From Candidatus Izemoplasma sp. (lineage in GTDB: Bacteria; Bacillota_I; Bacilli_A; Izemoplasmatales; Izemoplasmataceae), in contig JASFZA010000007.1 in NCBI GenBank assembly GCA_045046715.1, forward strand, positions 14,945 through 78,944: a stretch of 64,000 bases of DNA, read 5' to 3'. The translations under genes and the position numbers were made by a program. Under the pieces are notes generated by a model that was given only the letters and a program-made list of their open reading frames with translations, was not told the origin of the DNA and searched no databases. Shown here one piece after another: positions 5,963 through 52,300 of this stretch. Numbering within the stretch: the stretch's first letter is position 1; every line of letters starts with the position of its first letter.

Positions 5963-6454
5963 CTATTTATTTAAGTGTTCTATGACTTCCTCTTTAAATT
6001 CAATTTTAAAGCTAGGTAACTTAATAGTTTTTAACTTTAAGTCCTCAGGCGGCTTATACGCTAAGCTAATGTGCTGTATATAATCTGGGAACTTATTTTT
6101 ATAACCATGTGCTTTAACATAATGATCGAATCGTTCTTTAAGAATTTTAGATTTGATAGTTAAAACTACCGCTCTCCATTCTGTATCTTTCTCGCCTAAA
6201 TATTTAATTCCTACAATAGATCCTTTTTCTTTAACCTTAATAGGAGATTTACCTGGATCTAGATCTAAAGTTTCAATAGAATATACAATAGTTGCATGGA
6301 AGTCTTTAATAGGATCTAGCCCTAAAGATTCAGCATATTCTTTTAAGTTCTTATTAGTTTTAGCAGAGAACTTAGCACTAACATACGTGCCCTTTTCGTG
6401 TTCTTCATTTAAAAATTGTTCAAAATCCATCATCTTTCGCGATCCATCCACCAT
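5963..6454 (-). CDS. 2H phosphoesterase superfamily protein (LigT / Acb1-like)
   Basis: Two H-x-T/S motifs with appropriate spacing: FHATIVYS and QHISLAYK; size (about 155-163 aa) as for phage Acb1/LigT-type enzymes; start may be the MMDFEQ methionines. Confidence 0.55.
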   Translation of the reverse strand: MVDGSRKMMDFEQFLNEEHEKGTYVSAKFSAKTNKNLKEYAESLGLDPIKDFHATIVYSIETLDLDPGKSPIKVKEKGSIVGIKYLGEKDTEWRAVVLTIKSKILKERFDHYVKAHGYKNKFPDYIQHISLAYKPPEDLKLKTIKLPSFKIEFKEEVIEHLNK

Positions 6455-6512: not shown

Positions 6513-6920
6513 TCATATTTTATTCTGTCCTTCTACATCTCTTTTAATTCTATCTTGCTTTCTTTTATTTAACCACATACCAGCTTCTTCAAGATGGGTA
6601 ATAGCGCAAGCATTTTCTTTGCAAGGATAATTAGCATTCAAGCCTAATAAAATTTGTTTAGCGGCTTCAATAATTTCATCGACTTGACAACCATTAATCC
6701 CATTTTCTTTGATAGGACCGTTTTGTAAAGTAAATGATAAAGAATTTACATCGTGTCTAACGTAGATGAAATTATGAGGCCTAATCTTTTCCTCAAACCA
6801 TTGATAATCCATTCTTCCATTTTCTTCGAATTTTTCCGGATGAGTAACTTTTAATTTGCCCATATCCACTAAAGAGAAGTCATTGATTTTTGTAATATTT
6901 TTTAAAGTTTCTAATGCCAT
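6513..6920 (-). CDS. hypothetical protein (135 aa)
   Basis: ORF preceded by a TATAAATA element; no family assigned. Confidence 0.6.
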   Translation of the reverse strand: MALETLKNITKINDFSLVDMGKLKVTHPEKFEENGRMDYQWFEEKIRPHNFIYVRHDVNSLSFTLQNGPIKENGINGCQVDEIIEAAKQILLGLNANYPCKENACAITHLEEAGMWLNKRKQDRIKRDVEGQNKI

Positions 6921-12434: not shown

Positions 12435-12442
12435 TATTTATA
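12435..12442 (-). promoter_or_regulatory. T4-type late promoter TATAAATA upstream of the Ile-Lys-nested tRNA cluster
   Basis: Exact TATAAATA on the minus strand 27 nt upstream of the tRNA-Ile 5' end, overlapping the stop region of ORF 12438..12902. Confidence 0.4.
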
Positions 12443-12902
12443 CTAAAGTAAACAGGTTTTTAAGGTTTTTAGTCTTTTTTATCTTTTTATTAGAAGAGAC
12501 TATTTTTAACTTGGGCTTATTGAAGACTTTAGGATGATCCAACTCTCCAAAACCTGGTTTATCTAAAGCCTCTGTTTCTGCGGTGCCATGGCTACCTAAG
12601 TTAAATATTAATCCTTCTCTTCTGTTCCCTCTAGGGAATATAGAAATTAGACTCTGCATGGGTATATACAAGTTCTGACTGATCCCAGAAAACATGGCGC
12701 TAAACATAATACCTTCTTCATCAATTTTAAGACCTAAAGTCGAAGAATATGATATATTAAAAACCACAACTCCGTTCTGACCTAGGCCTGGAGGAATCAT
12801 TAGATCTTTAAAATCTGTTCTAACCATAATTTCAGGAACACCGTTGGTATCAGTGATCCAACGGTGCATAGCCTCAACTAGATAATATTTAGACCCACTC
12901 AT
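12438..12902 (-). CDS. SspB-like ClpXP adaptor protein
   Basis: YLVEAMHRWITDTNGVPEIMV...GVVVFNISYSSTLGLKIDEEGIMFSAMFSGISQNLYIPMQSLISIF parallels E. coli SspB (YLLRAFYEWLLDNQLTPHLVV...IVLNIAPRAVGNLEL...FNARFGG...VSVPLAAVLAIY), followed by a flexible basic tail. Confidence 0.6.
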   Translation of the reverse strand: MSGSKYYLVEAMHRWITDTNGVPEIMVRTDFKDLMIPPGLGQNGVVVFNISYSSTLGLKIDEEGIMFSAMFSGISQNLYIPMQSLISIFPRGNRREGLIFNLGSHGTAETEALDKPGFGELDHPKVFNKPKLKIVSSNKKIKKTKNLKNLFTLV

Positions 12903-17719: not shown

Positions 17720-18002
17720 TCATTTTCTCAGCTATTTCTAGAAATTCAGGTGTTTGAACAAAAAATCGACTTAGCCATAAATTATTATCAATATACCGGA
17801 AGACTTTGAGTTTTATCAAATGATTGATTCTCATTTTATCTTCAAGTTTGCATCCTTTAGGATTATACGCAATTGTGTACCAATTCATATTTTGAAGAGA
17901 AGTTAAATTCTCAATTTGATGATCTCTTTTGATCATTAAAAGATATTGATAAATTGGTTGCTTCTCTTCTTCGCTTAACTTAGGGTAAACTATATCAGTC
18001 AT
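17709..18002 (-). CDS. hypothetical protein (97 aa)
   Basis: ORF wedged between the two topoisomerase subunit genes with overlaps on both sides. Confidence 0.5.
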   Translation of the reverse strand: MTDIVYPKLSEEEKQPIYQYLLMIKRDHQIENLTSLQNMNWYTIAYNPKGCKLEDKMRINHLIKLKVFRYIDNNLWLSRFFVQTPEFLEIAEKMNAN

Positions 18003-19854
18003 TATTCATTATCCATTCTTTACGTTTTTTAGGATCGTTGCCATAAACAACACTTAATTGAACATCATCTTCAGCCGTTACTTCACTCATCTGTGCAATA
18101 ACTGGATGATGTATCATATCTTCATAAGCGTCTTCGGTTAAAGAGCCAAGACCTTTTAAATATGTAATCTCGCCTTTGACTTTACCTGCGCTTACGGCCT
18201 TATTATAATCTTCTAAAGTATAATAGTAAACCACTTCTTTCTTAAATTCCGCTTTTAATATTGGAGATGAAACAACATGAACTCTTTTTTCTGAAAATAA
18301 CCTTGGCCATTTTCTTAAGAAGTTTAATAAGAGTCCAACAATTGAATATCCATCTAAATCGGCATCAGCTAGTATATTAATCTGGCCATAATTTAATTTA
18401 CCATATTCAGGGTTACCATATTCTAGCCCGATAATATTCATTAAATCTGTCAATTCTTTATTGCCTAAAATCTTAGCCATCGATTGTCCGGTAACATTCA
18501 TAGGTTTTCCTCTTAAAGGATATCCTCCATGAATTGCCGTATCTCTCACTTTAGATAAAGATCCTATAGCTGACCCACCTTCTGAAATAAACAATTGTCG
18601 CTTTTCAGGATTCTTGTGATTTGCAGGAATATGCGATAATACTTTTTTCTTCTTAGCATCTCTAAGAGCTTGGTTATTTGCCACTCTTTCTGCTACTTCT
18701 TGTTTAAGCTTATAAGTTTCAATAATAGGATCTATTAAAGCCTGATTTCTAAGTAATCTATGAAAAAATGCATCATTTTCAATATCTAAAATGCCTTTAT
18801 ATTCTCTCACTGGATTAGTAATAAATTCTTTTGTTTGAGATCTAAATTTTGCACCTTTAATTTTATTGGTAATTAAAACCACTGTTAAATGATTTTTTAC
18901 ATCTGAAGGTTTGATCTTCCATCTTTTATATTTTTTAAGTAATAAGTCTCTTAGCTTATACGTGATTTGATTTGTAATGTATTCAACATGAGTACCACCT
19001 TCATAGGTATCGATACCATTAACGAAAGAAATTTGGTCTGGTTCGTCAGACGAAACCACCGCTAATCTAAAATTATCCGTTTGTAAAATTTCAGCCGGTC
19101 GATCTAGCAATTCGATGTAATGTTTAAAAAGTTTAGTTTTTATTAACTTCTTCTTCCATTTAAACTTGATATCAGGGTAAACGACGGCTAAGTCTAAGAC
19201 TCTTTTATGCAATAACTTTAAGTGAGCCTCATCTAAGCCTTTTAAGCCAAACCTGGCGTAATCAGGAGTGTATTTGATTTTAGTGTATGGTTTAGAATTT
19301 GTTGGTGCACTTGTATAAGTTGTCTTATACATATTATTTGCGGAGCTTATTACGCTTAAATTAATTCCGTCATGAGTTGAAGCTGTAAACTTCTTACTAA
19401 AAATGTTAACTAAAGAAGCTCCTAGCCCATGTGTGCCAATTGACACTACATCATCATCTTCAAAATTACCACCTGCCCTAAGGCTAGTAAAGGCCATTTC
19501 AGCTTGAGATTTACCAGTTTCTTTATCTATTTCTGAACTAATTCCTCTACCGTTATCTTTAATGATAATAGTATCTCCATCAATATCAACATCTATTAAA
19601 TTAGCGAATTTGAAATCTGTTCTTAAAGCTTCATCAATACTATTTGATATAATTTCATCAAACATCTTTAATTGCGCTGGACAAATTTTAACAGATTTCT
19701 TTAACAGGAGGTCTTCTTCTAATACCCATTTAATTTGTTTGGAAACTGAAGTATCTCCAAGATACATCCCAGGCCTTTTTAAAATGTGATCAATTTCAGA
19801 CAATTGTTTTACAACATTCTTTCTCATATTTTTTCCTCTTTGGAATGAATCCAA
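17995..19854 (-). CDS. gp39: DNA topoisomerase II large subunit (T4 gp39 plus gp60 fused type, GyrB-like)
   Basis: ILKRPGMYLG, GHKL ATPase motifs (DNGRGI, GLGASL), TOPRIM EGGSA...DADLDG; likely true start is the ATG at 19827 (ATGA overlap with the dCMP deaminase stop). Confidence 0.9.
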   Translation of the reverse strand: MDSFQRGKNMRKNVVKQLSEIDHILKRPGMYLGDTSVSKQIKWVLEEDLLLKKSVKICPAQLKMFDEIISNSIDEALRTDFKFANLIDVDIDGDTIIIKDNGRGISSEIDKETGKSQAEMAFTSLRAGGNFEDDDVVSIGTHGLGASLVNIFSKKFTASTHDGINLSVISSANNMYKTTYTSAPTNSKPYTKIKYTPDYARFGLKGLDEAHLKLLHKRVLDLAVVYPDIKFKWKKKLIKTKLFKHYIELLDRPAEILQTDNFRLAVVSSDEPDQISFVNGIDTYEGGTHVEYITNQITYKLRDLLLKKYKRWKIKPSDVKNHLTVVLITNKIKGAKFRSQTKEFITNPVREYKGILDIENDAFFHRLLRNQALIDPIIETYKLKQEVAERVANNQALRDAKKKKVLSHIPANHKNPEKRQLFISEGGSAIGSLSKVRDTAIHGGYPLRGKPMNVTGQSMAKILGNKELTDLMNIIGLEYGNPEYGKLNYGQINILADADLDGYSIVGLLLNFLRKWPRLFSEKRVHVVSSPILKAEFKKEVVYYYTLEDYNKAVSAGKVKGEITYLKGLGSLTEDAYEDMIHHPVIAQMSEVTAEDDVQLSVVYGNDPKKRKEWIMNND

Positions 19855-20282
19855 TTTTCTTTACCCTTGGCTTTAATCCAAAGATCTTTAGCATCTTTAG
19901 CAGAATGATATTCATCAACAAATACGATTCTACAACACGTAGTATTTAATAAGAGTTTAACACAAGTTAAACATGGCGACCAAGTCACATAGCAGGTGTG
20001 AATTTCATAAACATTAGAACATTGTAATAAAGCATTTTGTTCAGCATGGATAGCTTCACATTTAGTAAAAGATTTATTACTAGATTCTAGAGCTTCAGGG
20101 TGACAAGGCGAATTCGAAGTGCAATTAGGGGTTCCTGCAGCAGGTCCATTATACCCCGTTGAAGCTATATGCCCTAAGTGATCTACCAAAACGCACCCAA
20201 CTTGGTTTCGACAACAGGAGGCTCTCATCTTTACTTCTTTAACTATATTTATGAAGTATTGATCTTTAGAAATTCTACTCAT
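19824..20282 (-). CDS. cd: dCMP deaminase
   Basis: HAEQNA ... SPCLTCVKLL zinc-binding CDA motifs. Confidence 0.85.
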   Translation of the reverse strand: MSRISKDQYFINIVKEVKMRASCCRNQVGCVLVDHLGHIASTGYNGPAAGTPNCTSNSPCHPEALESSNKSFTKCEAIHAEQNALLQCSNVYEIHTCYVTWSPCLTCVKLLLNTTCCRIVFVDEYHSAKDAKDLWIKAKGKENWIHSKEEKI

Positions 20283-20449
20283 TTGTTAAGAACTCTTTCT
20301 TTGTTTACAAGTCGAACATATTCAGATTCTGTACATATCTTGCCATTAATAGAAAAGGTTTCACACCTAGAGCCATATTCATCTTCAGCTATAAATCGAT
20401 AAAATTTTATATTATTCAGAGTAAATGTGTCTTTTTCATGTCTATACAT
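20279..20449 (-). CDS. 56-aa ORF, translationally coupled on both sides
   Basis: Hand-translated (MYRHEKDTFTLNNIKFYRFIAEDEYGSRCETFSINGKICTESEYVRLVNKERVLNK); ATG overlaps the kinase stop, and its TGA overlaps the cd ATG (ATGA). Confidence 0.4.
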   Translation of the reverse strand: MYRHEKDTFTLNNIKFYRFIAEDEYGSRCETFSINGKICTESEYVRLVNKERVLNK

Positions 20450-21002
20450 CGATAAAATTCTCTACTTCTAAATGAGCCAAATCAAATTGCATTTGACTCA
20501 CGCTAGTAACGCATGGCATATCGGTAAAATCGTCATATCCCCAGATAATAGTGTTAAAAATCTTAGGAGGTGTTAAATAATTAGAAAATAATTCATATCG
20601 ATCTATAATTCGGTTAAATTGATCTCGACTTAAGGATATTTTATCATCTTCAAAATCTTCAACAACGTGATTTCTTAATAAAATGATTTCTAATAAATTT
20701 ATTTCAGATTTTTCTAATAGCCATTCTCTAAATATCATAGATTCAGATTGATTTTCATCATATACTAAATTGCTTAAATAGCATCTATCAAAAATATAAG
20801 TGTAATTAGGATCTAACAAAACTAAAAAAGCTTTCATTATTTCGAAATGCTTGGCAGTGTTGATTTTCATCAAAGAACCATCTGGAGCAGATTTAGGCAT
20901 TGTAAATAATTTAGCTTTGTGTTTTTGTAATAAGCTTCTGATGAAGGTAGTTTTACCAGCACCATCAGGGCCATCTACCATAATTAACTTAATTTTAGTC
21001 AT
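20442..21002 (-). CDS. thymidylate-kinase-like P-loop nucleotide kinase
   Basis: VDGPDGAGKTTF P-loop and DRCYLSNLVY (Tmk DRY..S motif). Confidence 0.65.
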   Translation of the reverse strand: MTKIKLIMVDGPDGAGKTTFIRSLLQKHKAKLFTMPKSAPDGSLMKINTAKHFEIMKAFLVLLDPNYTYIFDRCYLSNLVYDENQSESMIFREWLLEKSEINLLEIILLRNHVVEDFEDDKISLSRDQFNRIIDRYELFSNYLTPPKIFNTIIWGYDDFTDMPCVTSVSQMQFDLAHLEVENFIDV

Positions 21003-21900
21003 TTAATACCTCTTTGAGTTTAGGGATTTCATACGGGCAGATAATATCACAATTAAAATAAATAAAATCTGCTAATCCAGGATGAAACACTTCTTGTGGA
21101 TTCTCATTATACACTATTTTAGGCTGATTAAACAATATTCCGTAATATTCTCGCTTATTTGGCTTAATTAATTTGATATTAGAAGGAGGATTTCGAAATT
21201 TACTAAAACTTTCATTAGGATCAGTGATAAAAATATTACAATCTGTATAAGTATCTATTACTTCTTCAAACTTATAAGCTCGATCTGTTAATCTAAAAGG
21301 AAAGAAAATATCGTTTTTACCTATTTTAAAATCTAAATTAAAATCTAAACCAACTAAATCAAAATATTTTTTAGAAATCACTTTTTGATTTACTTCTATT
21401 TTAGATGAAGAAACCTCTGGAGAGTGTTGTAATATATAGTCTTTTTGACATCGGTTTAATACAGTAGTTTTATCTGCGTGTAAAATTGACAAAACATCTG
21501 TTGCATAAAAGTCATCGATATAAGGGCGATCTAAATGTTCTAACTTTGTAATATTAAAATTATTACTATATGTTCTATCTCCTGCGTAGCCAGTAATGTC
21601 TGTTATTAAAGGAATATCAGATCCTACAATATTATCTATCAATCTAGTGTTTTGAGACCAAAACCCTACCCTAGTATCAACTGTATTAAGTCCGTATCTA
21701 GCTTTAATGATTCGACATTCATCTATTAATTTAAGATCCAAAAACTCTTGTAAATCCGCAACACGATCTGGGATAACTAAATAATCATTATCAAGATCCA
21801 TTCGGCAAAGATGCAATTTGAGGTTACCATCTTTTAAAATAGAGTAGAGACCGCTGGTGTGCGATCTCATACTATACATAGGAACTATAATTTTACTCAT
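20995..21900 (-). CDS. orphan protein (301 aa) in the hydroxymethylase/sugar operon; candidate DNA glycosyltransferase (hypothesis only)
   Basis: Track ORF 20995..21936 trimmed to ATG 21900 (MSKIIVPMY..., 8-nt overlap with the hydroxymethylase stop); no motif recognised. Confidence 0.6.
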   Translation of the reverse strand: MSKIIVPMYSMRSHTSGLYSILKDGNLKLHLCRMDLDNDYLVIPDRVADLQEFLDLKLIDECRIIKARYGLNTVDTRVGFWSQNTRLIDNIVGSDIPLITDITGYAGDRTYSNNFNITKLEHLDRPYIDDFYATDVLSILHADKTTVLNRCQKDYILQHSPEVSSSKIEVNQKVISKKYFDLVGLDFNLDFKIGKNDIFFPFRLTDRAYKFEEVIDTYTDCNIFITDPNESFSKFRNPPSNIKLIKPNKREYYGILFNQPKIVYNENPQEVFHPGLADFIYFNCDIICPYEIPKLKEVLND

Positions 21901-22603
21901 TGATAATTGCATCGATATATTCAAAATCTCGATCAAAAATATGACCAGAAACCATTGTTGAACTAAAAGATCCTAAACCAACTCCTAGAACTGAAGCTAA
22001 ATAGCATAGAGCTTTTCCTTGTAAATACATATCCAATTGTAAGACAATTGCAGTATTCTGAGATCTCATATCGACCTGAGCATTTAATTTTCCATCTCTA
22101 ATAAAATAAGTCATAGAAATAGTACAAGGAAATTCTAAAGTTTCGTCTTTATCTAATAAAACATGATCTGATTCGTTAAGAATTAGGATGGTAGCTCTTC
22201 TTGATTCAGGATTATCTGATAGCTCTTTAATAATAGATTTTAATTGTCTTTTAATCCGAGGGCCATATAAAGAATTAAAATTATCCGGAATATCTTTCGA
22301 TTTAGGTTTATCTATAAAAGGGATAACAGCAGAATAATTTTTGAAAGCTTCTAAGGCGTTTTCTTTACCAGACATCATAAAATCGTAGAATGTTTCTGCG
22401 TAGTGATAAGGAATACGATTGATATTAGTATTCTGAAATTCGAACGTTGTAGGATCTTCTACAGTAAAAGATACCGTATGACATTCTTGGCATTGCCCTA
22501 TTCTAGATTCTAGGTTAAAATCTGGATTGGTTCGAATTAATTTATTAACTTTAATGAAAGCTTCTTCAAAAGTTTTAGTTTCTATATGTTTACATTTACT
22601 CAT
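21893..22603 (-). CDS. gp42: deoxycytidylate hydroxymethylase-like (T4 gp42 homologue, ThyA fold)
   Basis: NPESRRATILI / EFPCTISMTYFIRDGKLNAQVDMRSQN / LQLDMYLQ align with T4 gp42 NPDSRRGIMIY / DFMCTNTVQYLIRDKKINAVVNMRSND / FRNDYAWQ, including the catalytic Cys and Asp at the T4 Asp179 position. Confidence 0.75.
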   Translation of the reverse strand: MSKCKHIETKTFEEAFIKVNKLIRTNPDFNLESRIGQCQECHTVSFTVEDPTTFEFQNTNINRIPYHYAETFYDFMMSGKENALEAFKNYSAVIPFIDKPKSKDIPDNFNSLYGPRIKRQLKSIIKELSDNPESRRATILILNESDHVLLDKDETLEFPCTISMTYFIRDGKLNAQVDMRSQNTAIVLQLDMYLQGKALCYLASVLGVGLGSFSSTMVSGHIFDRDFEYIDAIINE

Positions 22604-22935
22604 ATTTTTAAAAATTCCTCTATATTTAGATTTTTGTCATCGATGTAAAAGTCTCCGAGAGGCTTACAAAGATATAATTTGTGGTATTTAACTTTATGTT
22701 TTATCAACCACTTTTCAATTATAGGTCTATTATTGTTTTCAATTTGATTTCTTTTTTCACTGTAAAAAGACATACCTCTAGCGGTATTAAAAACAATTAT
22801 ATGGCCTTCGTCATAAAGCTTATTAATTTTATCTATCATTGGTTGAATAGGTTCGAAATTATCATAATCACGGTCTTCATTCCACACTGATATGGTATTA
22901 TCAATATCTATTACGTATTTCATTGTTTGTCCCAC
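22600..22935 (-). CDS. HAD-superfamily phosphatase (small, cap-less)
   Basis: Motif I DIDNT, motif II FNTAR, motif III K (CKP), motif IV YIDDK. Confidence 0.7.
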   Translation of the reverse strand: MGQTMKYVIDIDNTISVWNEDRDYDNFEPIQPMIDKINKLYDEGHIIVFNTARGMSFYSEKRNQIENNNRPIIEKWLIKHKVKYHKLYLCKPLGDFYIDDKNLNIEEFLKI

Positions 22936-24704
22936 ATTTCATGTAATTGTGTTGAGTTAGAGTTCGGGATATATTCTTCACCTGTTTCTTTATCTATTAG
23001 CATCCATTTTCCGGGACATTTAGTTTTTATTACAAATTCTTTAGGTTCGTTAAAGCAAGTCGCGATAGTATTATCTAATAATATTCTACCTGTCCGGTTT
23101 TTATTAGATGAAAACTTTTGTTTCACCAATTCTGCTAAATATAAACCATAATAATATGCTGAATAAGACTTTATAGGATTGTTACTGAAATATCCGGCTA
23201 AACTAATCCAGATAATTGGTAACCATAAATAAGTTTCTTCGTCAAAAAAATTATCTAAATTCATAAAATTATTTAAAAATGGCGGAATATCTAATTCTAA
23301 ATTTCCATCTTCTAAACCTTTGATAGCATATAATGGGTCTTCATTAAAATTATCATATCCGCTGCAACCATATAAGATTTTAGCAAAATCGTATTTTTCT
23401 AAACCATACAATTGATTATGACCAAAATATCCTCTAGGATCTATTAATTTAACGTTATCTTCAAGATCTATAATCATATTACTGAAATTAGGATCCCCGT
23501 GTATGAAAGTATAAACTCCGCACACAGTATTTTGATAATAATCTACTAATCTTTCTGATAGAGCCTTAGAAACATTAAAATAATTCGAATCGATTTTAAT
23601 TCCATTTACCGAATGAATTTCTCCTAAGCTTTCTAATAAAGTTTTTAATCTATGTGTTCGCTGAACTACTTTTTCGTGAGATTCTTTAATAATGTCTCTA
23701 ATGATTGTTTTAGACGGCAATATTCTAGCTTCTGATGAAACATGCAACTTTTTAATAGCGCTAATTGCTTTCAAAACATATTTAAATTTAGATTTTTCTT
23801 TTTGAGCAATAGCAGTTCCTCGAATTCGAGAAAGTTTAATATATTTTTGGGCTACAACAGTATTTCTACTTGGTTTAAAAACTGAAGCAGACTTATATTC
23901 AGCAGTTGGCGTTAATTCATCTGATTTGAGATGATCGTACCAAGACATTTCTATTTTTTGTAATTTATCGCCAGCTTTGTTATTAGAATATTTTCTAACA
24001 TAGTTATCTCCAATTTCTACCCTATTAAAATCTCGACATACTTGTAAAAAAGTAGTAGCATCTTTAAGCTTAGTCATATCGCCAAAATCTAATACTTTAA
24101 ATATAGGCATCGGATTAAAAGATTTAGGATCAAATAAATGTATTAGATCCCCAGTCGGCGGTTTTGATCCTATTTTCCATTTCTTCTTAAGAAATCCTTT
24201 AGGAACATAATAAATTCCTATAACATCTCCATTATCGCTCGGAATAATAGAATCTAAAGATTTAATATACCTAAATCTACATCGATCTCCGTTTAAAGCG
24301 ATTCCTGGCATGCTGTAATCAATATAAAATTTAGTTTTAGGGATTATGTCAGCCCAATTGAAGATGACGTTAGAGTCATATAAGATAGGGTTGTTACTAA
24401 AAGTCCTAAAGATAGCGCCAGCACTTCCGTCAAATTCTGTGTCTGAATAGAAATAGCAATTTGGGATACCAGCGGCCATTAAATATCCTTCAACCATTTT
24501 AAGAAATTCTTCGTTAACTATAACATGAAATTTTCCAACATTAAAATGCTTAGTATAATATTCTATTTGTTGTAATAATGCGGTTTTAGATCCGATATTT
24601 ACTAAGCATTTTGGAAGGTGAGTAGTAATAGGTTCTAATCTGGTAGCTAAACCAGAAGAAACTATTACTACATCTACTTTTTGTTTTTGTTTTTCTTTAT
24701 TCAT
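22920..24704 (-). CDS. bifunctional sugar-1-phosphate nucleotidyltransferase / sugar kinase (APH-choline kinase fold)
   Basis: N-terminus VVIVSSGLATRLEPITTHLPKCLVNIG (GxGxRLxPxT..PK); C-terminus HGDPNFSNMII...VKLIDPRG (Brenner HxDxxxxN plus D). Confidence 0.7.
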   Translation of the reverse strand: MNKEKQKQKVDVVIVSSGLATRLEPITTHLPKCLVNIGSKTALLQQIEYYTKHFNVGKFHVIVNEEFLKMVEGYLMAAGIPNCYFYSDTEFDGSAGAIFRTFSNNPILYDSNVIFNWADIIPKTKFYIDYSMPGIALNGDRCRFRYIKSLDSIIPSDNGDVIGIYYVPKGFLKKKWKIGSKPPTGDLIHLFDPKSFNPMPIFKVLDFGDMTKLKDATTFLQVCRDFNRVEIGDNYVRKYSNNKAGDKLQKIEMSWYDHLKSDELTPTAEYKSASVFKPSRNTVVAQKYIKLSRIRGTAIAQKEKSKFKYVLKAISAIKKLHVSSEARILPSKTIIRDIIKESHEKVVQRTHRLKTLLESLGEIHSVNGIKIDSNYFNVSKALSERLVDYYQNTVCGVYTFIHGDPNFSNMIIDLEDNVKLIDPRGYFGHNQLYGLEKYDFAKILYGCSGYDNFNEDPLYAIKGLEDGNLELDIPPFLNNFMNLDNFFDEETYLWLPIIWISLAGYFSNNPIKSYSAYYYGLYLAELVKQKFSSNKNRTGRILLDNTIATCFNEPKEFVIKTKCPGKWMLIDKETGEEYIPNSNSTQLHEMWDKQ

Positions 24705-25353
24705 TAATCCTCTTTTTTACAATGTCGCTTAAAGTTCCACCTGGATGATACTTCAAAAAATCTTCCTGTGTAAATCCTCTCATATCTGAGAGCGTTACTG
24801 AAATACAGTCTAAGAAACATAAGATAAGGGCCGTTGAAGCCGTAGGAGCCAATAAATTAGCGTCGCCTTCAGTTACTTCTCCTAAACATAAGTTAGGTAT
24901 TATATCATTTTCGAACTCAGGATTACAATGAATTAAGATAGAATTTTCAACTTTGTTTTTTATTAATTCTCGATGAGTAAATATGCCCTGTATTTCGGCT
25001 GTAGTACCAGATTTAGATAATGCTATAACAAAGTCATCTTCCCCTATAAATCCTGCATCACCGTGAAAATAATTAGATGCATTTAGATAAAAAGATGGTA
25101 ATCCTAAACTAACAAAAGTTTCTGAAGCTTTCGCTGCTATGTTTCCATTTTTACCAACTCCTGTAATTACAATTTTATTACCTCTTTCTAAACAATAATG
25201 CAAACTTCTAACTAAATTAAAAAAGGGGGCTTCCCATATAATTTTATGCATGTTAGCAATCGCTTCGATACTTCTTTCAATACATAATTGCGCTTGTGCG
25301 ATACTGAGACTATTTGTCATTAGTTGAGCCCATTTTGCCTTCGCCTCTTTCAC
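24697..25353 (-). CDS. SIS-domain sugar-phosphate isomerase (KdsD-type arabinose-5-phosphate isomerase-like)
   Basis: ITGVGKNGNIAAKASETFVSLGLPSFYLNASNYFHGDAGFIGEDDFVIALSKSGTTAEI parallels KdsD GMGKSGHIG.K.AAT.ASTGTP.FFVHP.EA.HGDLGM....DV..AISNSGE..E. Confidence 0.7.
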   Translation of the reverse strand: MKEAKAKWAQLMTNSLSIAQAQLCIERSIEAIANMHKIIWEAPFFNLVRSLHYCLERGNKIVITGVGKNGNIAAKASETFVSLGLPSFYLNASNYFHGDAGFIGEDDFVIALSKSGTTAEIQGIFTHRELIKNKVENSILIHCNPEFENDIIPNLCLGEVTEGDANLLAPTASTALILCFLDCISVTLSDMRGFTQEDFLKYHPGGTLSDIVKKRINE

Positions 25354-25765
25354 TAACTAAAGGCACTTGTTTATACAAATCTTCTTCTAAAACGCATAGC
25401 AAAGAAGGAGTCATTACAGGAATTTGAATTAGTTGTCCTAATTTCATTCCATTGGTTAAGTAGCGTGTTTCGCTGCCAATATTGTGAATATCTAAATGGA
25501 CTTCGCCTGAATACCCATGATCAATTAAGCATGCACCTATAATTAGAGATTTTTTGGCTGCAACGCCAGATTTATTTACAAACATTAAAGCATATCCAAA
25601 CGGTACTTCAAATTTTAAGCCTGTTGGGATTACGATATTTTGCGAAGGTAAAATTCTTTTACCTGTAGCATTAAAATTGTTAGGAATGAAGACGTCTATC
25701 GCGTCGCCGGCATTGGCTCTTATTGGATCTTTGACATCACGCGTTTTAGCGTATTTAATATACAT
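25310..25765 (-). CDS. dut: dUTPase-family nucleotide pyrophosphatase
   Basis: Trimeric dUTPase motifs: AGDAIDV, IDHGYSGEV, GMKLGQLI, ERGEGKMGST. Confidence 0.8.
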   Translation of the reverse strand: MYIKYAKTRDVKDPIRANAGDAIDVFIPNNFNATGKRILPSQNIVIPTGLKFEVPFGYALMFVNKSGVAAKKSLIIGACLIDHGYSGEVHLDIHNIGSETRYLTNGMKLGQLIQIPVMTPSLLCVLEEDLYKQVPLVSERGEGKMGSTNDK

Positions 25766-26728: not shown

Positions 26729-27550
26729 TTACACCTCTAAATTAAGTTTAGTTTGTTTTTGTGCTACTAATTCTGAAAATCTTTTAATCATTTTCTTAGA
26801 TAATGCAGAATCTGTGTCACAACTTAAAAGCATCTTATCATACTCTTGTTCTAAATTGTAACATTTTATGAAAGTAATAAAAAATTCGAGTATTTTTTGA
26901 ACTCTGGCATAATCTTTCCTTCCTTGGACAAATTTTCTACATTGAGTAATATTTCGATTGATAGTAGTTTGCAAGTTAGAATAATTATCTCCTTTAAATG
27001 TGTATAGCTCTGTTGGAACTAAAAATTTTCTAAGATTTGCTAATGCCTCTAATCTTTCTTTTCTAAAATGATTTAATCTTTTATATAAAACATCATAGTA
27101 TTTGTGAGTTGGGGGAGGAGTCAAAGCTTTAAACATTGATTGATTATTATTTTTAATACATTGCCTAATATAAGTACCTGACGTAAATCTTTCAGTTTTA
27201 ATTAAGGAAACAGGTTTGGGTAGATCGTATTTTTCGATATTAGTTTGATAGCTATAGTACCGATCTTCTCCAGCATATAAATTTCGATAATTGTATCCAT
27301 CATTATCGATATTGGTTAAGATATCGTTTAAAAAACCGGTAGAGCTTGGAATAATTTTAGCATTGGGAATATTAGAAGCGATTTCTCTTAATAATTCAAT
27401 ACGTTCCTCAATCTTTAAAGGATTTTTAGTCATTGTATCTTTGGTTGTATAAACAATCACAATGATCGGGTTCTTCATTGTTTCAAAGACTTTCAAATGG
27501 CCTAAATGGGGAGGATTAAACCTCCCAATTATTACATCTTGTTCTAACAT
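26729..27550 (-). CDS. HxGH nucleotidyltransferase (NMN adenylyltransferase / cytidylyltransferase-like) with uncharacterised C-terminal half
   Basis: VIIGRFNPPHLGHLKVFE signature at the N-terminus. Confidence 0.6.
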   Translation of the reverse strand: MLEQDVIIGRFNPPHLGHLKVFETMKNPIIVIVYTTKDTMTKNPLKIEERIELLREIASNIPNAKIIPSSTGFLNDILTNIDNDGYNYRNLYAGEDRYYSYQTNIEKYDLPKPVSLIKTERFTSGTYIRQCIKNNNQSMFKALTPPPTHKYYDVLYKRLNHFRKERLEALANLRKFLVPTELYTFKGDNYSNLQTTINRNITQCRKFVQGRKDYARVQKILEFFITFIKCYNLEQEYDKMLLSCDTDSALSKKMIKRFSELVAQKQTKLNLEV

Positions 27551-28662
27551 GGTTCGCCCATTTTGATGATAGAATTAATTAATTGTTTACGATCTGCTGT
27601 AATAATTTTAGAGCATCTTTTCTTAAGCTTCTTAAAATTAAATAATACAATTCTAAATACATCTTCTAAACCTGGCTCAGATTGAACCATTACTTCAAAA
27701 TATTCTTCTAGTTTTTTATAGTTGAGACGAGTAGGGCGCTTTGTAAAGTCAACTCTATTCTCTTGAATGTAATCATTGACACTATCTTTAATACCAGCGT
27801 AGACTAAACAGGATACGACAGAAACAAAGGAAATATAATCATCTTTGTGTAATATTTTTTTAGTTTTAATTAAAGACGAGTTTTTATCAATTTCGTCAAA
27901 AACTAAATCAATCATGGTATCGGAATATTTACTATAAGAACTTAATTGGAATTCTTCTTTCTTTTCTTTATGAAAAGTATTAAAAACAGGGTTTTGAATT
28001 TTATATGATTGGTTAGAAACCGTATCATGGATTACAAAACCTTCATTAGGAACAATTTTACCAGCGGTTAAAACTAAATCGAATAAAATGCGAAAGTAAT
28101 CTAAAGAAAATTCATCCATCTCTGCATATTTAGTACTTAATACTGTTTCTAAAGCAGATAGATCAATATCCTTAGCCAGTTTAATATTCGGCTGAGAGTC
28201 AACTTCTAAAATATTAGCAATTGTACTAGAATCACTTAAATATTGTCCATTACTAATTGCTAAAGACAATATAATACCACTTGTACCTTCTTCATCCATA
28301 AAATCCGTATAATCAATAATACTCGGCTGGTATTTAGATTTAGAAAATTGTAAAGTTTCATCTAAAACTTTCGGAAAGATTTCTAAATGGATTTCCGTTC
28401 GATTCGGGATTAAATCTAATCTTTTAGAATTTAAAAATTCTATAGCGCCTTCATAGATCCCGACTCCGATTCTTTTAACATTATCTAATGGAACTTTAGC
28501 TCTAGAATAATAATTAATTTGTCCATTTTCATCTTTTTCTAATATTAAGCAAACCGCATCAATTTTTACATTGCACATAATTTGCCCAAGTTTGCTTCTT
28601 CTACCAAACATAGATTCTAATAAACCTAGATCTTTGAGCATTGCTGATTGCAAAGTTTTCAT
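27544..28662 (-). CDS. ligase-like covalent nucleotidyltransferase (possible RNA ligase)
   Basis: Candidate motifs I NVKIDAV (K33), III IHLEIF (E94), IV NEGFVIHD (E207), V YKIQN (K221); spacing resembles T4 Rnl2 (K35, E99, E204, K225/K227). Confidence 0.45.
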   Translation of the reverse strand: MKTLQSAMLKDLGLLESMFGRRSKLGQIMCNVKIDAVCLILEKDENGQINYYSRAKVPLDNVKRIGVGIYEGAIEFLNSKRLDLIPNRTEIHLEIFPKVLDETLQFSKSKYQPSIIDYTDFMDEEGTSGIILSLAISNGQYLSDSSTIANILEVDSQPNIKLAKDIDLSALETVLSTKYAEMDEFSLDYFRILFDLVLTAGKIVPNEGFVIHDTVSNQSYKIQNPVFNTFHKEKKEEFQLSSYSKYSDTMIDLVFDEIDKNSSLIKTKKILHKDDYISFVSVVSCLVYAGIKDSVNDYIQENRVDFTKRPTRLNYKKLEEYFEVMVQSEPGLEDVFRIVLFNFKKLKKRCSKIITADRKQLINSIIKMGEPC

Positions 28663-29540
28663 TTTTTTTCTCCGTATTCGCTAGGACTTTTGTATTCGCT
28701 AGGAAGATCGTAATTGTTTTTAGTTAAATAAACGATATGTTTATCTTTGATTTTTTGAACTATTTCATAATCGACGTTTCTAATTAAAAATTCCCACACC
28801 GATTCGAAGCTTCTAAAATTTCTGGCTTCTAATGAATAGTTGCCTAGTAATAGTTGGATAATTGTATCAGGATCTTTACTAATAAATTGTCTATGCATTT
28901 CTTTAGGATTTTTTAATACTGGGCCTAATTCATCAACTTTAGCTCTATATCCTCTAGTCCTAGATTTAATATAATGCAATCCACTAGAATAATTAAATAG
29001 GAATCTTTGTTCTGAATTAACGGTAGATTTATAATTCACAAAGTGTGAACAAGCCGAGAGTAAAGAATTTCGATATAAATTTTTGTAATTAGAGTTTTGG
29101 TTTCTATGATCTCCATACATCCATAATGAAAATTTAACATCCATAGTGCATATTAGATCGATTTGGTATTTTTTACCATCTATATAATATGCTAATGATA
29201 TGATTTGGGCGCTATGATTAAAATAATATTCTAGGGAAGGATTTACAGATAACAAATACTTAAATAAAATTTCTCTAGGGCTATTACCCGGAATTGTGGT
29301 TAAACTATCCCATAAATAACAAGTTGTATCGAAAATCAAATCTATATCGCCAATAGTTTCGTCTTCTTTAACTGGGTTAGTTGTTAATAATTGTTGGCTA
29401 CGGATTATTGCGCTTGCGGTAGAGCCGGTAGCTGTTAATTTGTTTTTATTAATGTTGTAGAAATTACAAAAACTTTCTATAATTGGAATCACGTTGTTGA
29501 CTAAGACGCGATCAGATTTTTTGATAGCTTGTCCACCCAT
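28659..29540 (-). CDS. pol-beta superfamily nucleotidyltransferase
   Basis: G-S...[D]x[D] signature: ATGSTASAIIRS ... TIGDIDLIFD. Confidence 0.5.
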   Translation of the reverse strand: MGGQAIKKSDRVLVNNVIPIIESFCNFYNINKNKLTATGSTASAIIRSQQLLTTNPVKEDETIGDIDLIFDTTCYLWDSLTTIPGNSPREILFKYLLSVNPSLEYYFNHSAQIISLAYYIDGKKYQIDLICTMDVKFSLWMYGDHRNQNSNYKNLYRNSLLSACSHFVNYKSTVNSEQRFLFNYSSGLHYIKSRTRGYRAKVDELGPVLKNPKEMHRQFISKDPDTIIQLLLGNYSLEARNFRSFESVWEFLIRNVDYEIVQKIKDKHIVYLTKNNYDLPSEYKSPSEYGEKK

Positions 29541-29602
29541 AATATATTCTCTAAAATTAAAAGAAATATTATACCATAGGTGGCGACTATTTGTAAATGT
29601 TT

Positions 29603-42001: not shown

Positions 42002-42652
42002 CTATAAGATTGGACGAATATTAGACATTAATAGTTGGTAACATAAAGTAGGAATAGCTTCTAAAGTTCCGTTATTATCTAATATGATGTCAGATTGAGG
42101 TTTATAACTTACCATCATTTCTGAAGGATGAAGATTATCAAAAGTTTTTTGACTGTATTTTTCTTGTTTATCTACTCGCGAAACATGGATTAAAATACCT
42201 TTATCTCGCACCCATTGAGCTTCATTTTCAAATCTAATATCACCTATAATAACAATTCTATTATAGATTTTATCGTAATGTAGTTGTTCTTTTTCTGAAT
42301 TGATTAAAGTGTCTATCCAGATGCTTTCGCCATAAACCTTTCTACCATAATCTGTGCCTTCTAATTGCGCTAATTCTCGCGGAGAATACATACCATCTCC
42401 TACTTTAATATTTTTAATTTCTTTGTTTTCGCGATCAAAATGCCTCCATCCAATTCCAAATTTTTGAATGCAACAAGCCTTTACTGGATAAGCGAGATTT
42501 CTCCTATAGACCATGTATTTGTGCTTATACATTTCTTTAGTAATTGTTTCTAAAGCGTCTGCAACTGTATCTTTGCCAACGTTGTTATTATTAAGGAAAT
42601 TACCGTCTGGGTCTAGTCTTCTTCCTGCAAATCCTATTGGTATTAAGTTCAT
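42002..42652 (-). CDS. gp1: deoxynucleoside monophosphate kinase (T4 gp1-like)
   Basis: GKDTVADAL, SPRELAQLEGTDYG, IIGDIRFENEAQWVRDKGILIHVSR, LDNNGTLEA parallel T4 gp1 (GKDTTADF, RRLMQALGTD, PDTRQDHEMDAARAMGATVIHVVR, ITNDGSLEE). Confidence 0.75.
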   Translation of the reverse strand: MNLIPIGFAGRRLDPDGNFLNNNNVGKDTVADALETITKEMYKHKYMVYRRNLAYPVKACCIQKFGIGWRHFDRENKEIKNIKVGDGMYSPRELAQLEGTDYGRKVYGESIWIDTLINSEKEQLHYDKIYNRIVIIGDIRFENEAQWVRDKGILIHVSRVDKQEKYSQKTFDNLHPSEMMVSYKPQSDIILDNNGTLEAIPTLCYQLLMSNIRPIL

Positions 42653-49326: not shown

Positions 49327-52300
49327 ATGGCATATAAAGATTTAGTTGGTACCAAACCGTTTTACGATGACTTCAATAAAGACTTAAATTTTCTAAGTTG
49401 TTTATTTGTTCCCGGTAGAGCAGTTCAAGGAAGAGAGTTAACCCAAGCACAAACTATATTACAAAATCAGGTTTCACAATTAGCTGGACATATATTTGAA
49501 AATAATAGTTTAGTATATGGTGGTGAAATTGATTTTAATAATCATAAACCTGCCGCTAAGGTTGAATTAGAATATTTTAATACTGGTGGAACTACTACTG
49601 GAGTGGTTATAAACCCCGAATCACTTATAGGCAACACTTATGCCAATACTGCGGAATCTTCTCAATTTACAATAACACATGCTAAAATAGTTAATAGTGA
49701 ATTATTCATTTACTATTCATACACCGGTGTTAATGCTTTAAGTAACGAACAATTAAATGCTTTAACTGGGACCAATTTAGATCTTAAAATTATAGATTCT
49801 TCATTTAATGCTACTTCAGTTCAATGTAGACCTGGGATTATATTTAAAGATGGATATTTTATTACAATTATTGAGCAAGAGAAAGTTATCGCCAATCAAT
49901 CTACCGGTAGAATTTCTAGTGGTTATAGATTTGAAGAAGATATTGTTGATGAAAATGATCCATATTATGGTGCAACATTAAGAGATCCAGCAAACGGTTC
50001 GTATAATGCTAATGCTCCGGGTGCAAGTCGTTATAGAATTACTCCAATCCTAGATGGGTACGAAGATGATGCTTCCGATACTAATCGAGTCAAAATTTGG
50101 TCTATTGAAGATGGATCGATAATTGAGTCTGGCAGAAATGTCCAAATAGATGATTTCTTCCAAAAATACCGTGAAATTGTTGTAATACAAAATGGTAACA
50201 TCATTAAAGATAACCAAGAACCTATTTATGGCGATATCTTAAAAATGATAGCCCGTAGAACATCAGACGAATCTGGCGATTATACAATAGACGATTTCAA
50301 ACTAAGAGCATTCTTCGGTAAACAATTACCATCAGCTCCTAACTATAAAATATCTGTAAGTTCTGGTAAAGCATATGTTAAAGGATTCGAACATGAAAAA
50401 TTAACTAAAACGATTTTAGAACCAACTAAAGCTAGAACATTTAATACAATTACTTCAGGTAGAGCCAATTCTAAAGGAATGTATTATGTTGTTTTAGATC
50501 AAGAAACTTCGGCCCAGGAACAATTAAAAACTACTGGAGCTACAGGCTACCCATCTTTTGAAGAATTTACAGAAGTTAATTTTTATAATGCAACTCATTC
50601 AATAATTGGATCTGGAAGATTATTAACGATCACAAGGCAATCAAGCGATTATAGAGCATATTTTGGTGGTATGACAAGTGTTGTAGCTAATATCAAAAAT
50701 GTGGCCTATTTCCAAGAAGCTTCATCTACTATGAAATTCTATTTAAGACAAGGCACCGATGGCCCTGATATCTTTGGTAGTAGAAATCCATTAGTGTATC
50801 CAATTGAAGGAACTATTTTTACAAAAAATGTAGGATTATTAACTTATGATTCACAATTAGAAATTGAAATTAATTCTAATGGATCTGGCGAAGCTTTAAT
50901 CGTTAGAAATCCTGGCGAAATCGAATTTTATGACCATAACAACGGTGGTATTATTATGATCCAAGATACCGTTACAGGAGCTCAGGTAGATATTGATACT
51001 CTAACAGCTTCAGGAGGATCTTCTAATACCATCTCTGGTTTGGCAAATAATACATCTTATAGAACAATTCTTAAAGCTGAAATTGTAGATTCTCAACAAC
51101 GTACAAAATCTTTAACAACTGTTACGGACGAATTACATACTTTAGGATCAGATGATATTATTACTTTGAATCAAGAAGATGTTTATGATATCGAAAGTAT
51201 TAAAGAAGTCGGAGCTGGGTCAGATTATACATTTACAGCGGCCGAAAGAAATAATACTACTTTTGATACAGGAGCTACTGATTTTTGGTATGACAAAGGT
51301 ACTATTTCAGGTGTTAGAAGAAACGGCTTAAAGCGTTCTATCGGAGCTAGACAGTTTAAAATTTCTTATAGATATTTCACTCATTCTGCTTTAACAGAAA
51401 CTTCTCAATTTTTCACAGTGAATTCTTATTTTACTGATTTTTCAACTGAACTCGGAAGTATAAAATCTTTTAAATCTTCTAATAAAATTAATTATAAACT
51501 TTTAGATTGTATTGATTTTAGACCTAAATTAAGTGAAATCGTTGGCGGGAAGGCGAACGTAGCGAACCCTTTTGGGAGAATGAGCTTTTCTTATGAAACT
51601 TATATGCCTAGAATCGATAGAGTTTTCATTACATCAGAAGGTGTAATTGATTTTACCGAAGGAGTTCCATCTGCTCAAAATTTACCAGAAGTTCCTCCAT
51701 TATTAGAAGAGTCAATGTCTTTAGGTACAACATTCGTGCCAGCATATACTCCTAATGCAGTAGAAATTCAAATTCAAGTTAATGATAATAGACGTTACAC
51801 AATGCGAGATATTGGTAATCTTGAAGATCGTATTGAAAATTTAGAAGTTTATACTTCTTTAAGCGCTTTAGAAAGATCCGCATCTGATTTAAATATATTT
51901 GATTCTAACGGTTTTGATAGATTTAAAAATGGAATCTTTGTAGATCCATTTAATAATCATTTAATTGGTAATTTATTAGACGATGAATATAGAGTTGTAA
52001 CATATCCTGGTGGAGGTATGACTTGCCCATTTGAAGCGGTTGCTTTAGAATTTGATCAGTCAGTCGTTACTCCTACGGATTCGGTAGCGAATTTTCCTCA
52101 TTTGATTACTTCTCGAATAGAGCTAATCAAGCCTTTAGCAAAAAATTTAACGGCTTCAACTTGTATTAATGTTAATCCATATCTATATGCTGAATGGGAA
52201 GGCACTGTTGAAATTAATCCTAGTTTAGATACTTGGACTGAAACTAGATATGACCCGGAAGAAGTTTTAAGTGGTTTTATATTATTTGGAGTTGCTAGCG

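Follow-up and report, generated by a model that had tools for sequence, protein, structure and literature searches.

What modified base would be made by the tightly packed minus-strand genes at positions 19824-25765 of a 64-kb stretch of contig JASFZA010000007.1, and how is their product related to the hypermodified DNAs already known from phages? The stretch, referred to below as the window, belongs to a contig of 120.5 kb, and every search of the window covers about half of that contig. A first-pass annotation had read the locus as a DNA hypermodification island for glycosylated hydroxymethylcytosine (hmC), with its own phage-encoded pathway to a nucleoside diphosphate (NDP)-pentose, and had considered it independent of the system of phage RB69. 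Our analysis indicates that six of the genes very probably constitute a new, divergent copy of the cassette for arabinosylated 5-hydroxycytosine (ara-5hoC; 5hoC, 5-hydroxycytosine) of the RB69/HY126/DLP3 type. That annotation was right to see a cytosine hypermodification island in which the phage itself encodes a route to an NDP-pentose; the nature of the base and the claim of independence have to be revised. The ara-5hoC system, characterized so far in phages of Enterobacterales, Acinetobacter and Shewanella, is thereby extended to a much more distant T4-like lineage that is uncultured and low in GC.

The chemistry and the pathway of ara-5hoC were published in 2025-2026, and the window system is homologous to that of RB69. 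The DNA of RB69 and of Acinetobacter phage DLP3 contains mono- to tri-arabinosylated 5-hydroxycytosine with the sugar ether-linked to C5, and RB69 DNA has been reassigned from arabinosyl-hmC to arabinosyl-5hoC (Lee et al. NAR 2026, PMC13326640, which cites He et al. Nat Chem Biol 2026 and Mahler et al. Cell Host Microbe 2025). The ara-5hoC cluster comprises an arabinose-5-phosphate isomerase, a fused nucleotidyltransferase-kinase, an HAD phosphatase, a synthase, a transferase and a Tmk-like kinase (PMC13326640).

A megablast search of the island against 50,697 phage records returned zero matches, and the link to known phages is thus through protein-level searches only. With tblastn, six window genes (20442-25353) have one-to-one, colinear homologues in phages 92A1, RB69, Maestro (a relative of DLP3) and HY126, at 31-60% identity. 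In the order of the cassette, from isomerase to Tmk-like kinase, they are as follows, with 5hodCMP standing for 5-hydroxy-dCMP (dCMP, deoxycytidine monophosphate) and the identities referring to the phage homologues:

24697-25353, minus strand: D-arabinose-5-phosphate isomerase with a single, KdsD-like SIS domain (PF01380, 4e-6; PHROG 5670, 8e-59); 44-51% identity
22920-24704, minus strand: bifunctional AfhE-like nucleotidyltransferase-kinase of 594 amino acids (PF00483 at residues 13-98; PHROG 4098, 4e-127 over 12-593); 31-35% identity
22600-22935, minus strand: small HAD-type, AfhF-like phosphatase (PHROG 1238, 1e-25); 40-45% identity
21893-22603, minus strand: predicted ThyA-fold 5hodCMP synthase (PF00303, 1e-11); 49-60% identity
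20995-21900, minus strand: predicted GT-B fold glycosyltransferase, orf301 (PHROG 3891, 4e-87); 37-49% identity
20442-21002, minus strand: Tmk-like P-loop nucleotide kinase (PF02223, 1e-6; PHROG 761, 2e-22); 33-37% identity

Pfam and PHROG scans upheld the domain calls that had been made for these genes and their neighbors (deaminase, Tmk-like kinase, ThyA fold, HAD phosphatase, nucleotidyltransferase-kinase, SIS isomerase, dUTPase, gp1-type kinase and ThyX). Homology and colinearity with a known ara-5hoC cassette, both observed directly, support the reading of the locus as a DNA cytosine hypermodification island, and the same gene-for-gene correspondence with RB69 removes its supposed independence from that phage. 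The compact cassette is also present in metagenomic T4-like contigs, one relative lying on a scaffold named BATS20; together, the window and these contigs indicate that the minimal six-gene cassette is a portable unit. In the closest metagenomic relatives (L006 and L007), the Tmk-like gene precedes the transferase gene, so that some variation in gene order occurs within the cassette. In the same two relatives, the HAD phosphatase is called as a protein of 82-90 amino acids only (L006: 8485-8733), yet it is 53% identical to the window protein.

The nature of the base depends on the ThyA-fold enzyme. We aligned it with three reference proteins (Escherichia coli ThyA, T4 gp42 and a metagenomic protein that is a true ThyA) and with six homologues encoded in cassettes of the ara-5hoC type, namely RB69 gp48, which is the one of the six shown to make 5hodCMP, the proteins of 92A1 and Maestro, and those of three metagenomic relatives. 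The window enzyme displays L143E, C146, C168Q, D169N, G173V and N177D, and the same residues occur in RB69 gp48 and the five other homologues. T4 gp42 has C146, N177D and an acidic residue at 143 in common with the window enzyme but keeps D169 and G173, as does true ThyA. The alignment thus bears out the catalytic FPCT motif and the Asp at the position of T4 Asp179 (E. coli Asn177) that had been noticed earlier, and C146 and N177D confirm the argument for a cytosine substrate. A hydroxymethylated base is not supported, because the D169 that a T4-type dCMP hydroxymethylase retains is replaced by Asn and G173 by Val, as in the 5hodCMP synthases. In the PDB, the enzyme matches entries 9iqc, 9ir2 and 9iqu at an E-value of 3e-76, versus 1e-8 for T4 gp42; the sequence of 9iqc and 9iqu is nearly identical to RB69 gp48, and we infer that the three entries represent the HY126 enzyme. 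The ThyA homologue of the known systems (RB69 gp48, DLP3 gp80) makes 5hodCMP using flavin and O2 (Lee et al., PMC13326640), and Asn at position 169 (E. coli ThyA numbering) is a diagnostic mark of these synthases, validated experimentally in diverse homologues (PMC13326640). Because of the D169N signature and the closeness of the enzyme to the RB69 type, the predicted base is 5-hydroxycytosine rather than hydroxymethylcytosine, and the predicted product is an ether-linked arabosyl-5-hydroxycytosine that lacks the hydroxymethyl bridge. Residue 169 of the ThyA fold therefore separates the producers of 5hoC from those of hmC.

Attachment of the sugar would fall to the product of orf301, which the first-pass annotation had listed as a 301-amino-acid orphan. 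The protein is in fact a member of PHROG 3891 with homologues in 343 phage records, always beside a ThyA homologue, and it gave 89 protein matches at E <= 1e-5 in a database of genome and metagenome proteins. Searched as a profile against PDB sequences, the family gave no match, and the fold was revealed by structure comparison alone. An AlphaFold2 model built on a 51-sequence alignment, with a predicted local distance difference test score (pLDDT) of 94.1 and a predicted template modeling score (pTM) of 0.90, was compared with the PDB by Foldseek; the top match was MshA (3c4q, 4e-6), which has the GT-B fold, and the list also contains 9ir0, 'phage HY126 glycosyltransferase with UDP'. MshA is likewise the top structural match of RB69 gp46:47 (Lee et al., PMC13326640). 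Homologues of orf301 include RB69 gp46:47, DLP3 gp79/Maestro gp80 and HY126 XAN60474, and by its sequence the protein is a homologue of the proposed first (base-proximal) arabinosyltransferase.

Three proteins belong to the sugar branch. The isomerase, which likely starts at ATG 25320 (207 amino acids; alternative start GTG 25353), has phosphosugar isomerases as its best PDB matches (5uqi at 2e-26, 3etn and also 2xhz, which is E. coli KdsD), and its phage homologues are RB69 gp55, the HY126 isomerase and Maestro gp84. The AfhE-like enzyme joins an N-terminal sugar-1-phosphate nucleotidyltransferase to a C-terminal sugar kinase of the APH/choline-kinase type and is 34% identical to the HY126 protein over 582 amino acids (E 7e-82); the motifs GLATRL..PK.LVN of the nucleotidyltransferase and IHGDPNFSN and IDPRGYFG of the kinase are invariant across seven homologues including HY126. 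The phosphatase, with a likely start at ATG 22923 (107 amino acids), shows the motif DIDNT (DxDxT), has 9iqw (6e-18) and 1xpj (3e-13) as its best PDB matches and corresponds to RB69 gp51, the HY126 phosphatase and Maestro gp82. The same best structures have been reported for the homologues of the phosphatase (9iqw, 1xpj) and of the isomerase (5uqi, 3etn, 2xhz) in the known systems (Lee et al., PMC13326640).

With each catalytic step, arabinose as the sugar and UDP as its carrier taken from the characterized homologues, the following pathway can be proposed. In the sugar branch, the isomerase would convert ribulose 5-phosphate to arabinose 5-phosphate, the kinase half of the 594-amino-acid protein is predicted by analogy to phosphorylate this to arabinose 1,5-bisphosphate, the HAD enzyme is predicted to remove the 5-phosphate and leave arabinose 1-phosphate, and the nucleotidyltransferase half would combine the latter with UTP to give UDP-arabinofuranose. 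This sequence is the one given for HY126, in so far as He et al. 2026 is reported in PMC13326640: the AfhE kinase, then AfhF, then the AfhE nucleotidyltransferase. The earlier route through a free pentose therefore has the kinase and phosphatase steps reversed relative to HY126, although the SIS isomerase, phosphatase and nucleotidyltransferase-kinase that it invoked are all encoded by the phage. In the base branch, the 5hodCMP synthase would hydroxylate dCMP at C5 (with flavin and O2, as in the characterized homologues); a gp1-type deoxynucleoside monophosphate (dNMP) kinase encoded elsewhere in the window, which is expected by analogy to phosphorylate 5hodCMP, would together with the host NDP kinase yield 5-hydroxy-dCTP, and the phage polymerase would incorporate this instead of dCTP (deoxycytidine triphosphate). 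Phosphorylation of 5hodCMP has been shown for the RB69 dNMP kinase gp159 (PMC13326640). The Tmk-like kinase of the cassette, whose same-position homologues are RB69 gp45, Maestro gp79, 92A1 CDS0035 and HY126 XAN60473, may act on a modified dCMP. The orf301 product would then transfer arabinose to the 5-hydroxyl, placing an ether-linked sugar on every cytosine, and the sugar-coated cytosine would block restriction and CRISPR nucleases. For the DNA of such phages this would mean resistance to many restriction enzymes and Cas nucleases, and poor nanopore base-calling, as reported for RB69 and Thanatos.

Other explanations have to be weighed against this one. If the ThyA-fold enzyme were a gp42-type dCMP hydroxymethylase, the DNA would contain pentosyl-hydroxymethylcytosine made by a system independent of RB69; the catalytic Cys and the Asp at N177, which denote a cytosine substrate, and the acidic residue at 143 in common with T4 gp42 agree with this, and many database records name the homologues dCMP hydroxymethylase. 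Yet D169N together with G173V is found in all validated 5hodCMP synthases and not in T4 gp42, the enzyme is 47-58% identical to RB69 gp48 and its 92A1 and Maestro counterparts versus 27% for T4 gp42, the PDB E-values point the same way, and RB69 itself, with which the cassette is colinear, has been reassigned to 5hoC, so that a hydroxymethylase is very improbable here. It would be more surprising still if the sugar genes were auxiliary metabolic genes acting on host envelope or capsule precursors (Kdo/lipopolysaccharide, capsule arabinose), leaving only the ThyA-fold enzyme to concern DNA. The KdsD-like character of the isomerase and homologue labels such as 'capsule biosynthesis protein', 'GlmU' and 'phosphoheptose isomerase' may suggest such a role, but the linkage of the sugar genes to those for the GT-B protein and the ThyA homologue is invariable, as is their colinearity, in many uncharacterized relatives too. 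This linkage holds in phages reported to have arabosylated DNA (RB69 and DLP3 and, on the citations of Lee et al., Maestro, HY126 and 92A1), and the HY126 proteins have been shown to make UDP-arabinose for DNA, again as cited there (PMC13326640). Many database labels on these genes, among them 'dCMP hydroxymethylase', 'thymidylate synthase', 'phosphoheptose isomerase' and 'GlmU', are misleading.

A third possibility leaves the 5hoC base in place and changes the glycan, with a sugar other than arabinofuranose or another number of units. The window has no homologue of RB69 gp3, Maestro gp77/gp78 or the U32-like RB69 gp50, hexosylated 5hoC has been described in Rhizobium phage RL38J1 (Lee et al., PMC13326640), and Thanatos was first described with a deoxypentose or xylose-like modification. 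On the other hand, the window contains conserved genes for all three arabinose enzymes (the arabinose-5-phosphate isomerase and the AfhE-like and AfhF-like proteins), which speaks for arabinose, and Thanatos has one transferase and is mono-arabinosylated according to Lee et al. (PMC13326640); mono-arabosylation is therefore the simple expectation, already contained in the explanation that we favor, and a departure in the glycan seems improbable to us. Several points do weigh against the ara-5hoC assignment itself, the whole of which depends on homologues that are 31-60% identical. The window yielded no more than one glycosyltransferase, single transferases were inactive on 5hoC DNA in the work of Lee et al. 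(PMC13326640), and Brandt et al. report UDP-xylose formation by the 300-amino-acid Thanatos protein TH1_063 (PMC12838424), which synteny suggests to be a member of the orf301 family. In addition, full replacement of cytosine would need a MazG-type dCTPase, and none of three tblastn queries (RB69 gp56, the pyrophosphohydrolase of 92A1 and the PRA-PH protein of L006) gave a significant match in the 64-kb window.

Read as an ara-5hoC cassette, the six genes can be compared with the clusters of the Straboviridae (RB69 gp45-55, HY126 Afh, DLP3 gp76-83/Maestro gp77-84 and Serratia phage 92A1), with which they have in common the gene content, the order and the synthase signature, as well as a gp1-type dNMP kinase located elsewhere in the genome. 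The window cassette is as compact as that of Maestro and DLP3, with no inserted genes. It differs in that its phage is far more divergent and in its position beside the topoisomerase II genes instead of the slot between polymerase and uvsX; in the window, the genes for DNA polymerase and UvsX are adjacent to each other. The genes flanking the cassette encode a dUTPase-fold enzyme and a dCMP deaminase, and dTMP (deoxythymidine monophosphate) is supplied via ThyX and not td. A second or third transferase, a U32-like gp50 homologue and a MazG dCTPase were all missing from the window by tblastn, and no further glycosyltransferase was found there with RB69 gp3 and Maestro gp77/gp78 as tblastn queries or in Pfam scans of about 50 open reading frames (ORFs). 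The extra transferases of the poly-arabinosylating variants (RB69, di-arabinosyl, and DLP3, tri-arabinosyl; RB69 gp3 and DLP3 gp76/77) are unmatched in the window.

The glucosyl-hmC system of T4 (gp42, gp1, gp56 and the alpha- and beta-glucosyltransferases) resembles the window system in its logic, with a ThyA-fold enzyme acting on dCMP, a dNMP kinase, incorporation and then glycosylation of an exocyclic hydroxyl, and its modification genes are likewise embedded in a T4-type replication module. In contrast, gp42 is a folate-dependent enzyme that retains D169 and adds CH2OH, the UDP-glucose used by T4 comes from the host whereas the window phage encodes its own NDP-pentose pathway, and the T4 glucosyltransferases (beta-gt) have no homologue in the window by tblastn. 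In Shewanella phage Thanatos (TH1_060, 062 and 063; PMC12838424), a single 300-amino-acid glycosyltransferase-like protein, encoded next to a 237-amino-acid ThyA homologue and a 561-amino-acid nucleotidyltransferase-kinase, recalls the arrangement in the window. The Thanatos sugar is O-linked directly to the base, and both Thanatos and the window have one transferase candidate; the Thanatos authors, in contrast, assign UDP-xylose pyrophosphorylase activity to the 300-amino-acid protein and call the sugar a deoxypentose. RL38J1 (Pootjesviridae) is similar in having a D169N ThyA homologue that produces 5hodCMP, with a Tmk-like kinase and a transferase in the same cluster, and different in that it uses hexoses (galactose, glucose), lacks the isomerase/AfhE/AfhF arabinose pathway and belongs to another phage family.

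Around the cassette, and farther away in the window, lie genes for nucleotide-pool enzymes and one small ORF:

19824-20282, minus strand: dCMP deaminase, dCMP to dUMP (deoxyuridine monophosphate) (PF00383, 6e-17; PHROG 174, 2e-34)
20279-20449, minus strand: 56-amino-acid ORF (orf56) that overlaps both neighbors (8 and 4 nucleotides), outside the conserved cassette
25310-25765, minus strand: trimeric dUTPase-fold nucleoside triphosphate pyrophosphatase (PF00692, 2e-9; PHROG 135, 2e-26)
42002-42652, minus strand: gp1-type dNMP kinase (PF21448, 1e-10; PHROG 139, 2e-30)
61701-62693, plus strand: ThyX flavin-dependent thymidylate synthase (PF02511, 1e-10; PHROG 85, 4e-78)

The gp1-type kinase and ThyX that had been taken to complete a T-even-like hmC economy are indeed present; the hmC framing is not supported, and the deaminase and the dUTPase-fold enzyme lie outside the conserved cassette. 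These two were considered as further cassette members and rejected, as the RB69, 92A1, Maestro and HY126 clusters contain no counterpart of either and the phage proteins most similar to them are ordinary enzymes from unrelated phages; orf56 and the genes upstream of the island likewise lack counterparts in the four clusters. For orf56, there was no Pfam or PHROG match and no homologue at the RB69, 92A1 or Maestro cluster loci. The deaminase shows the HAE and PCxxC motifs in its translation, its closest phage homologues are ordinary dCMP deaminases, and it lies just downstream of the cassette in metagenomic relatives L009 and L010, as in the window. It is an ordinary nucleotide-pool neighbor, which supplies ThyX with substrate and draws on dCMP in competition with the 5hodCMP synthase; together with the dUTPase-fold enzyme and ThyX, it would form a parallel supply of dTMP. 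Neither ThyA/td nor dihydrofolate reductase was found in the window by tblastn with a metagenomic ThyA and a DHFR as queries. ThyX itself is unusually long (330 amino acids), and directly upstream of it (60559-61275) lies a gene for a NUMOD3-repeat protein, a DNA-binding module of the homing-endonuclease type (1e-19).

The dUTPase-fold enzyme has dUTPases as its best PDB matches, led by 8y1q (5e-12), and the phage proteins closest to it, at 35-42% identity, are dUTPases from unrelated phages. For this last reason, a plain dUTPase is the default, and most likely the enzyme would supply dUMP and keep uracil out of DNA. Its motifs are somewhat atypical, with NKSG in motif 2, Lys for the Arg of motif 4 and Met for the Phe of motif 5 (RGEGKMGST). 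Recruitment as a pyrophosphatase for dCTP (and dUTP), in non-orthologous replacement of gp56, is conceivable, though we consider it unlikely; an enzyme so recruited would exclude dCTP and feed dCMP to the 5hodCMP synthase and the adjacent deaminase. When the slot upstream of the isomerase, which the dUTPase-fold gene fills in the window, was compared in three metagenomic relatives, two carried a MazG-type (PRA-PH) gene in or near it (L006 and L010); in one of them it adjoins the isomerase gene, and in the other a single gene lies between.

The organization of the locus was also reconsidered. The coordinates and the strand hold, but 19824-25765 contains nine genes and not ten, and the earlier list itself named nine. 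With the best-supported start codons, neighboring genes overlap by 11 nucleotides between dUTPase-fold gene and isomerase (ATG 25320; 44 with GTG 25353), 8 between isomerase and nucleotidyltransferase-kinase, 4 between the latter and the phosphatase (ATG 22923; 16 with GTG 22935), 4 between phosphatase and ThyA-fold gene, 8 each between ThyA-fold gene and orf301, orf301 and Tmk-like gene, and Tmk-like gene and orf56, and 4 between orf56 and deaminase. The packing runs on past both ends: downstream, the deaminase gene overlaps the gene for the topoisomerase II large subunit by 4 nucleotides (ATG 19827), and upstream, genes for WYL_2, a cell-wall hydrolase, a cytidylyltransferase-like protein, orf372 and orf293 are packed up to 29540. 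The overlaps thus point to a long gene array in the style of T4 rather than to a separate operon. Promoter-like sites (92 found versus 92.8 expected) and terminator-like sites (8 versus 7.8) occur at chance level, and operon boundaries could not be assigned. The best sigma-70-like site of the region (29568-29597, minus strand; TTTACA, 18-nucleotide spacer, TG-TATAAT, 11/12 matches) sits in the sole sizeable intergenic gap upstream of orf293 and, with overall site counts at chance, could serve as promoter for the entire array as far as the topoisomerase genes.

Three tightly overlapping genes occupy 26729-29540. The cytidylyltransferase-like protein has an HxGH motif (PF01467, 3e-8). The other two, orf372 (27544-28662) and orf293 (28659-29540), were tested as additional glycosyltransferases, and neither had a Pfam or PHROG match. 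A search for homologues of orf372 found none in phages and, among 5.8 billion proteins, only orf372 itself; it had no sequence match in the PDB, and its single-sequence AlphaFold model was unusable (pLDDT 38). Weak matches of orf293 were to Lak megaphages only. By eye, orf372 has ligase-like motifs (KDENG, EGFVIHD) and orf293 a GS...DxD motif like that of nucleotidyltransferases, and the group of three may represent an RNA-repair module.

The contig was deposited within a metagenome-assembled genome (MAG) labeled Candidatus Izemoplasma sp. (locus tags including QM489_00660 and QM489_00705), and one window protein is 100% identical to an NCBI entry from it. The window encodes a T4-type replication module with sliding clamp, clamp loader (gp44/62), RegA, dNMP kinase, family-B DNA polymerase, UvsX and a gp41-like helicase, and also NrdA/NrdB, topoisomerase II subunits, RNase H and DNA ligase. 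It is part of a very divergent, uncultured T4-like phage, whose topoisomerase II large subunit (17995-19854) reaches 38-40% identity at most to any cultured phage. The 5hodCMP synthase, in comparison, is up to 60% identical to its counterparts in cultured phages, a difference that fits either strong constraint on the synthase or acquisition of the cassette by horizontal transfer. Class I ribonucleotide reductase requires O2. Since the window encodes such a reductase, a homologue of an O2-dependent hydroxylase and, by Pfam scan, a cell-wall hydrolase, the phage contig, with about 31% GC, was probably mis-binned by composition into the Izemoplasma MAG; that the phage truly infects the wall-less anaerobe Candidatus Izemoplasma is the wilder reading, against which the O2-requiring enzymes and the hydrolase speak. 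An SspB-like protein is encoded at 12438-12902 (PF04386, 1e-13). SspB is a ClpXP adaptor typical of Proteobacteria, and the phage gene would hint at a proteobacterial host.

Several other features of the window were recorded. Two clusters between 2537 and 12408 on the minus strand contain 17 tRNA genes, including two each for tRNA-Met, tRNA-Leu and tRNA-Ile, one tRNA-Ile having the unusual anticodon AAT. Two adjacent genes at 5963-6454 and 6513-6920 form a candidate anti-defense pair, one member matching the Acb1 anti-CBASS phosphodiesterase (PF23474, 5e-25) and the other having an Acb2/Tad1 hairpin domain (PF24729, 2e-7). A plus-strand block opens with an ORF of 1959 amino acids at 49327-55206, and the GC skew changes sign near 48-50 kb. 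The ORF at 55435-57699 ends in an endosialidase-chaperone domain (Peptidase_S74), which is typical of tail fibers.

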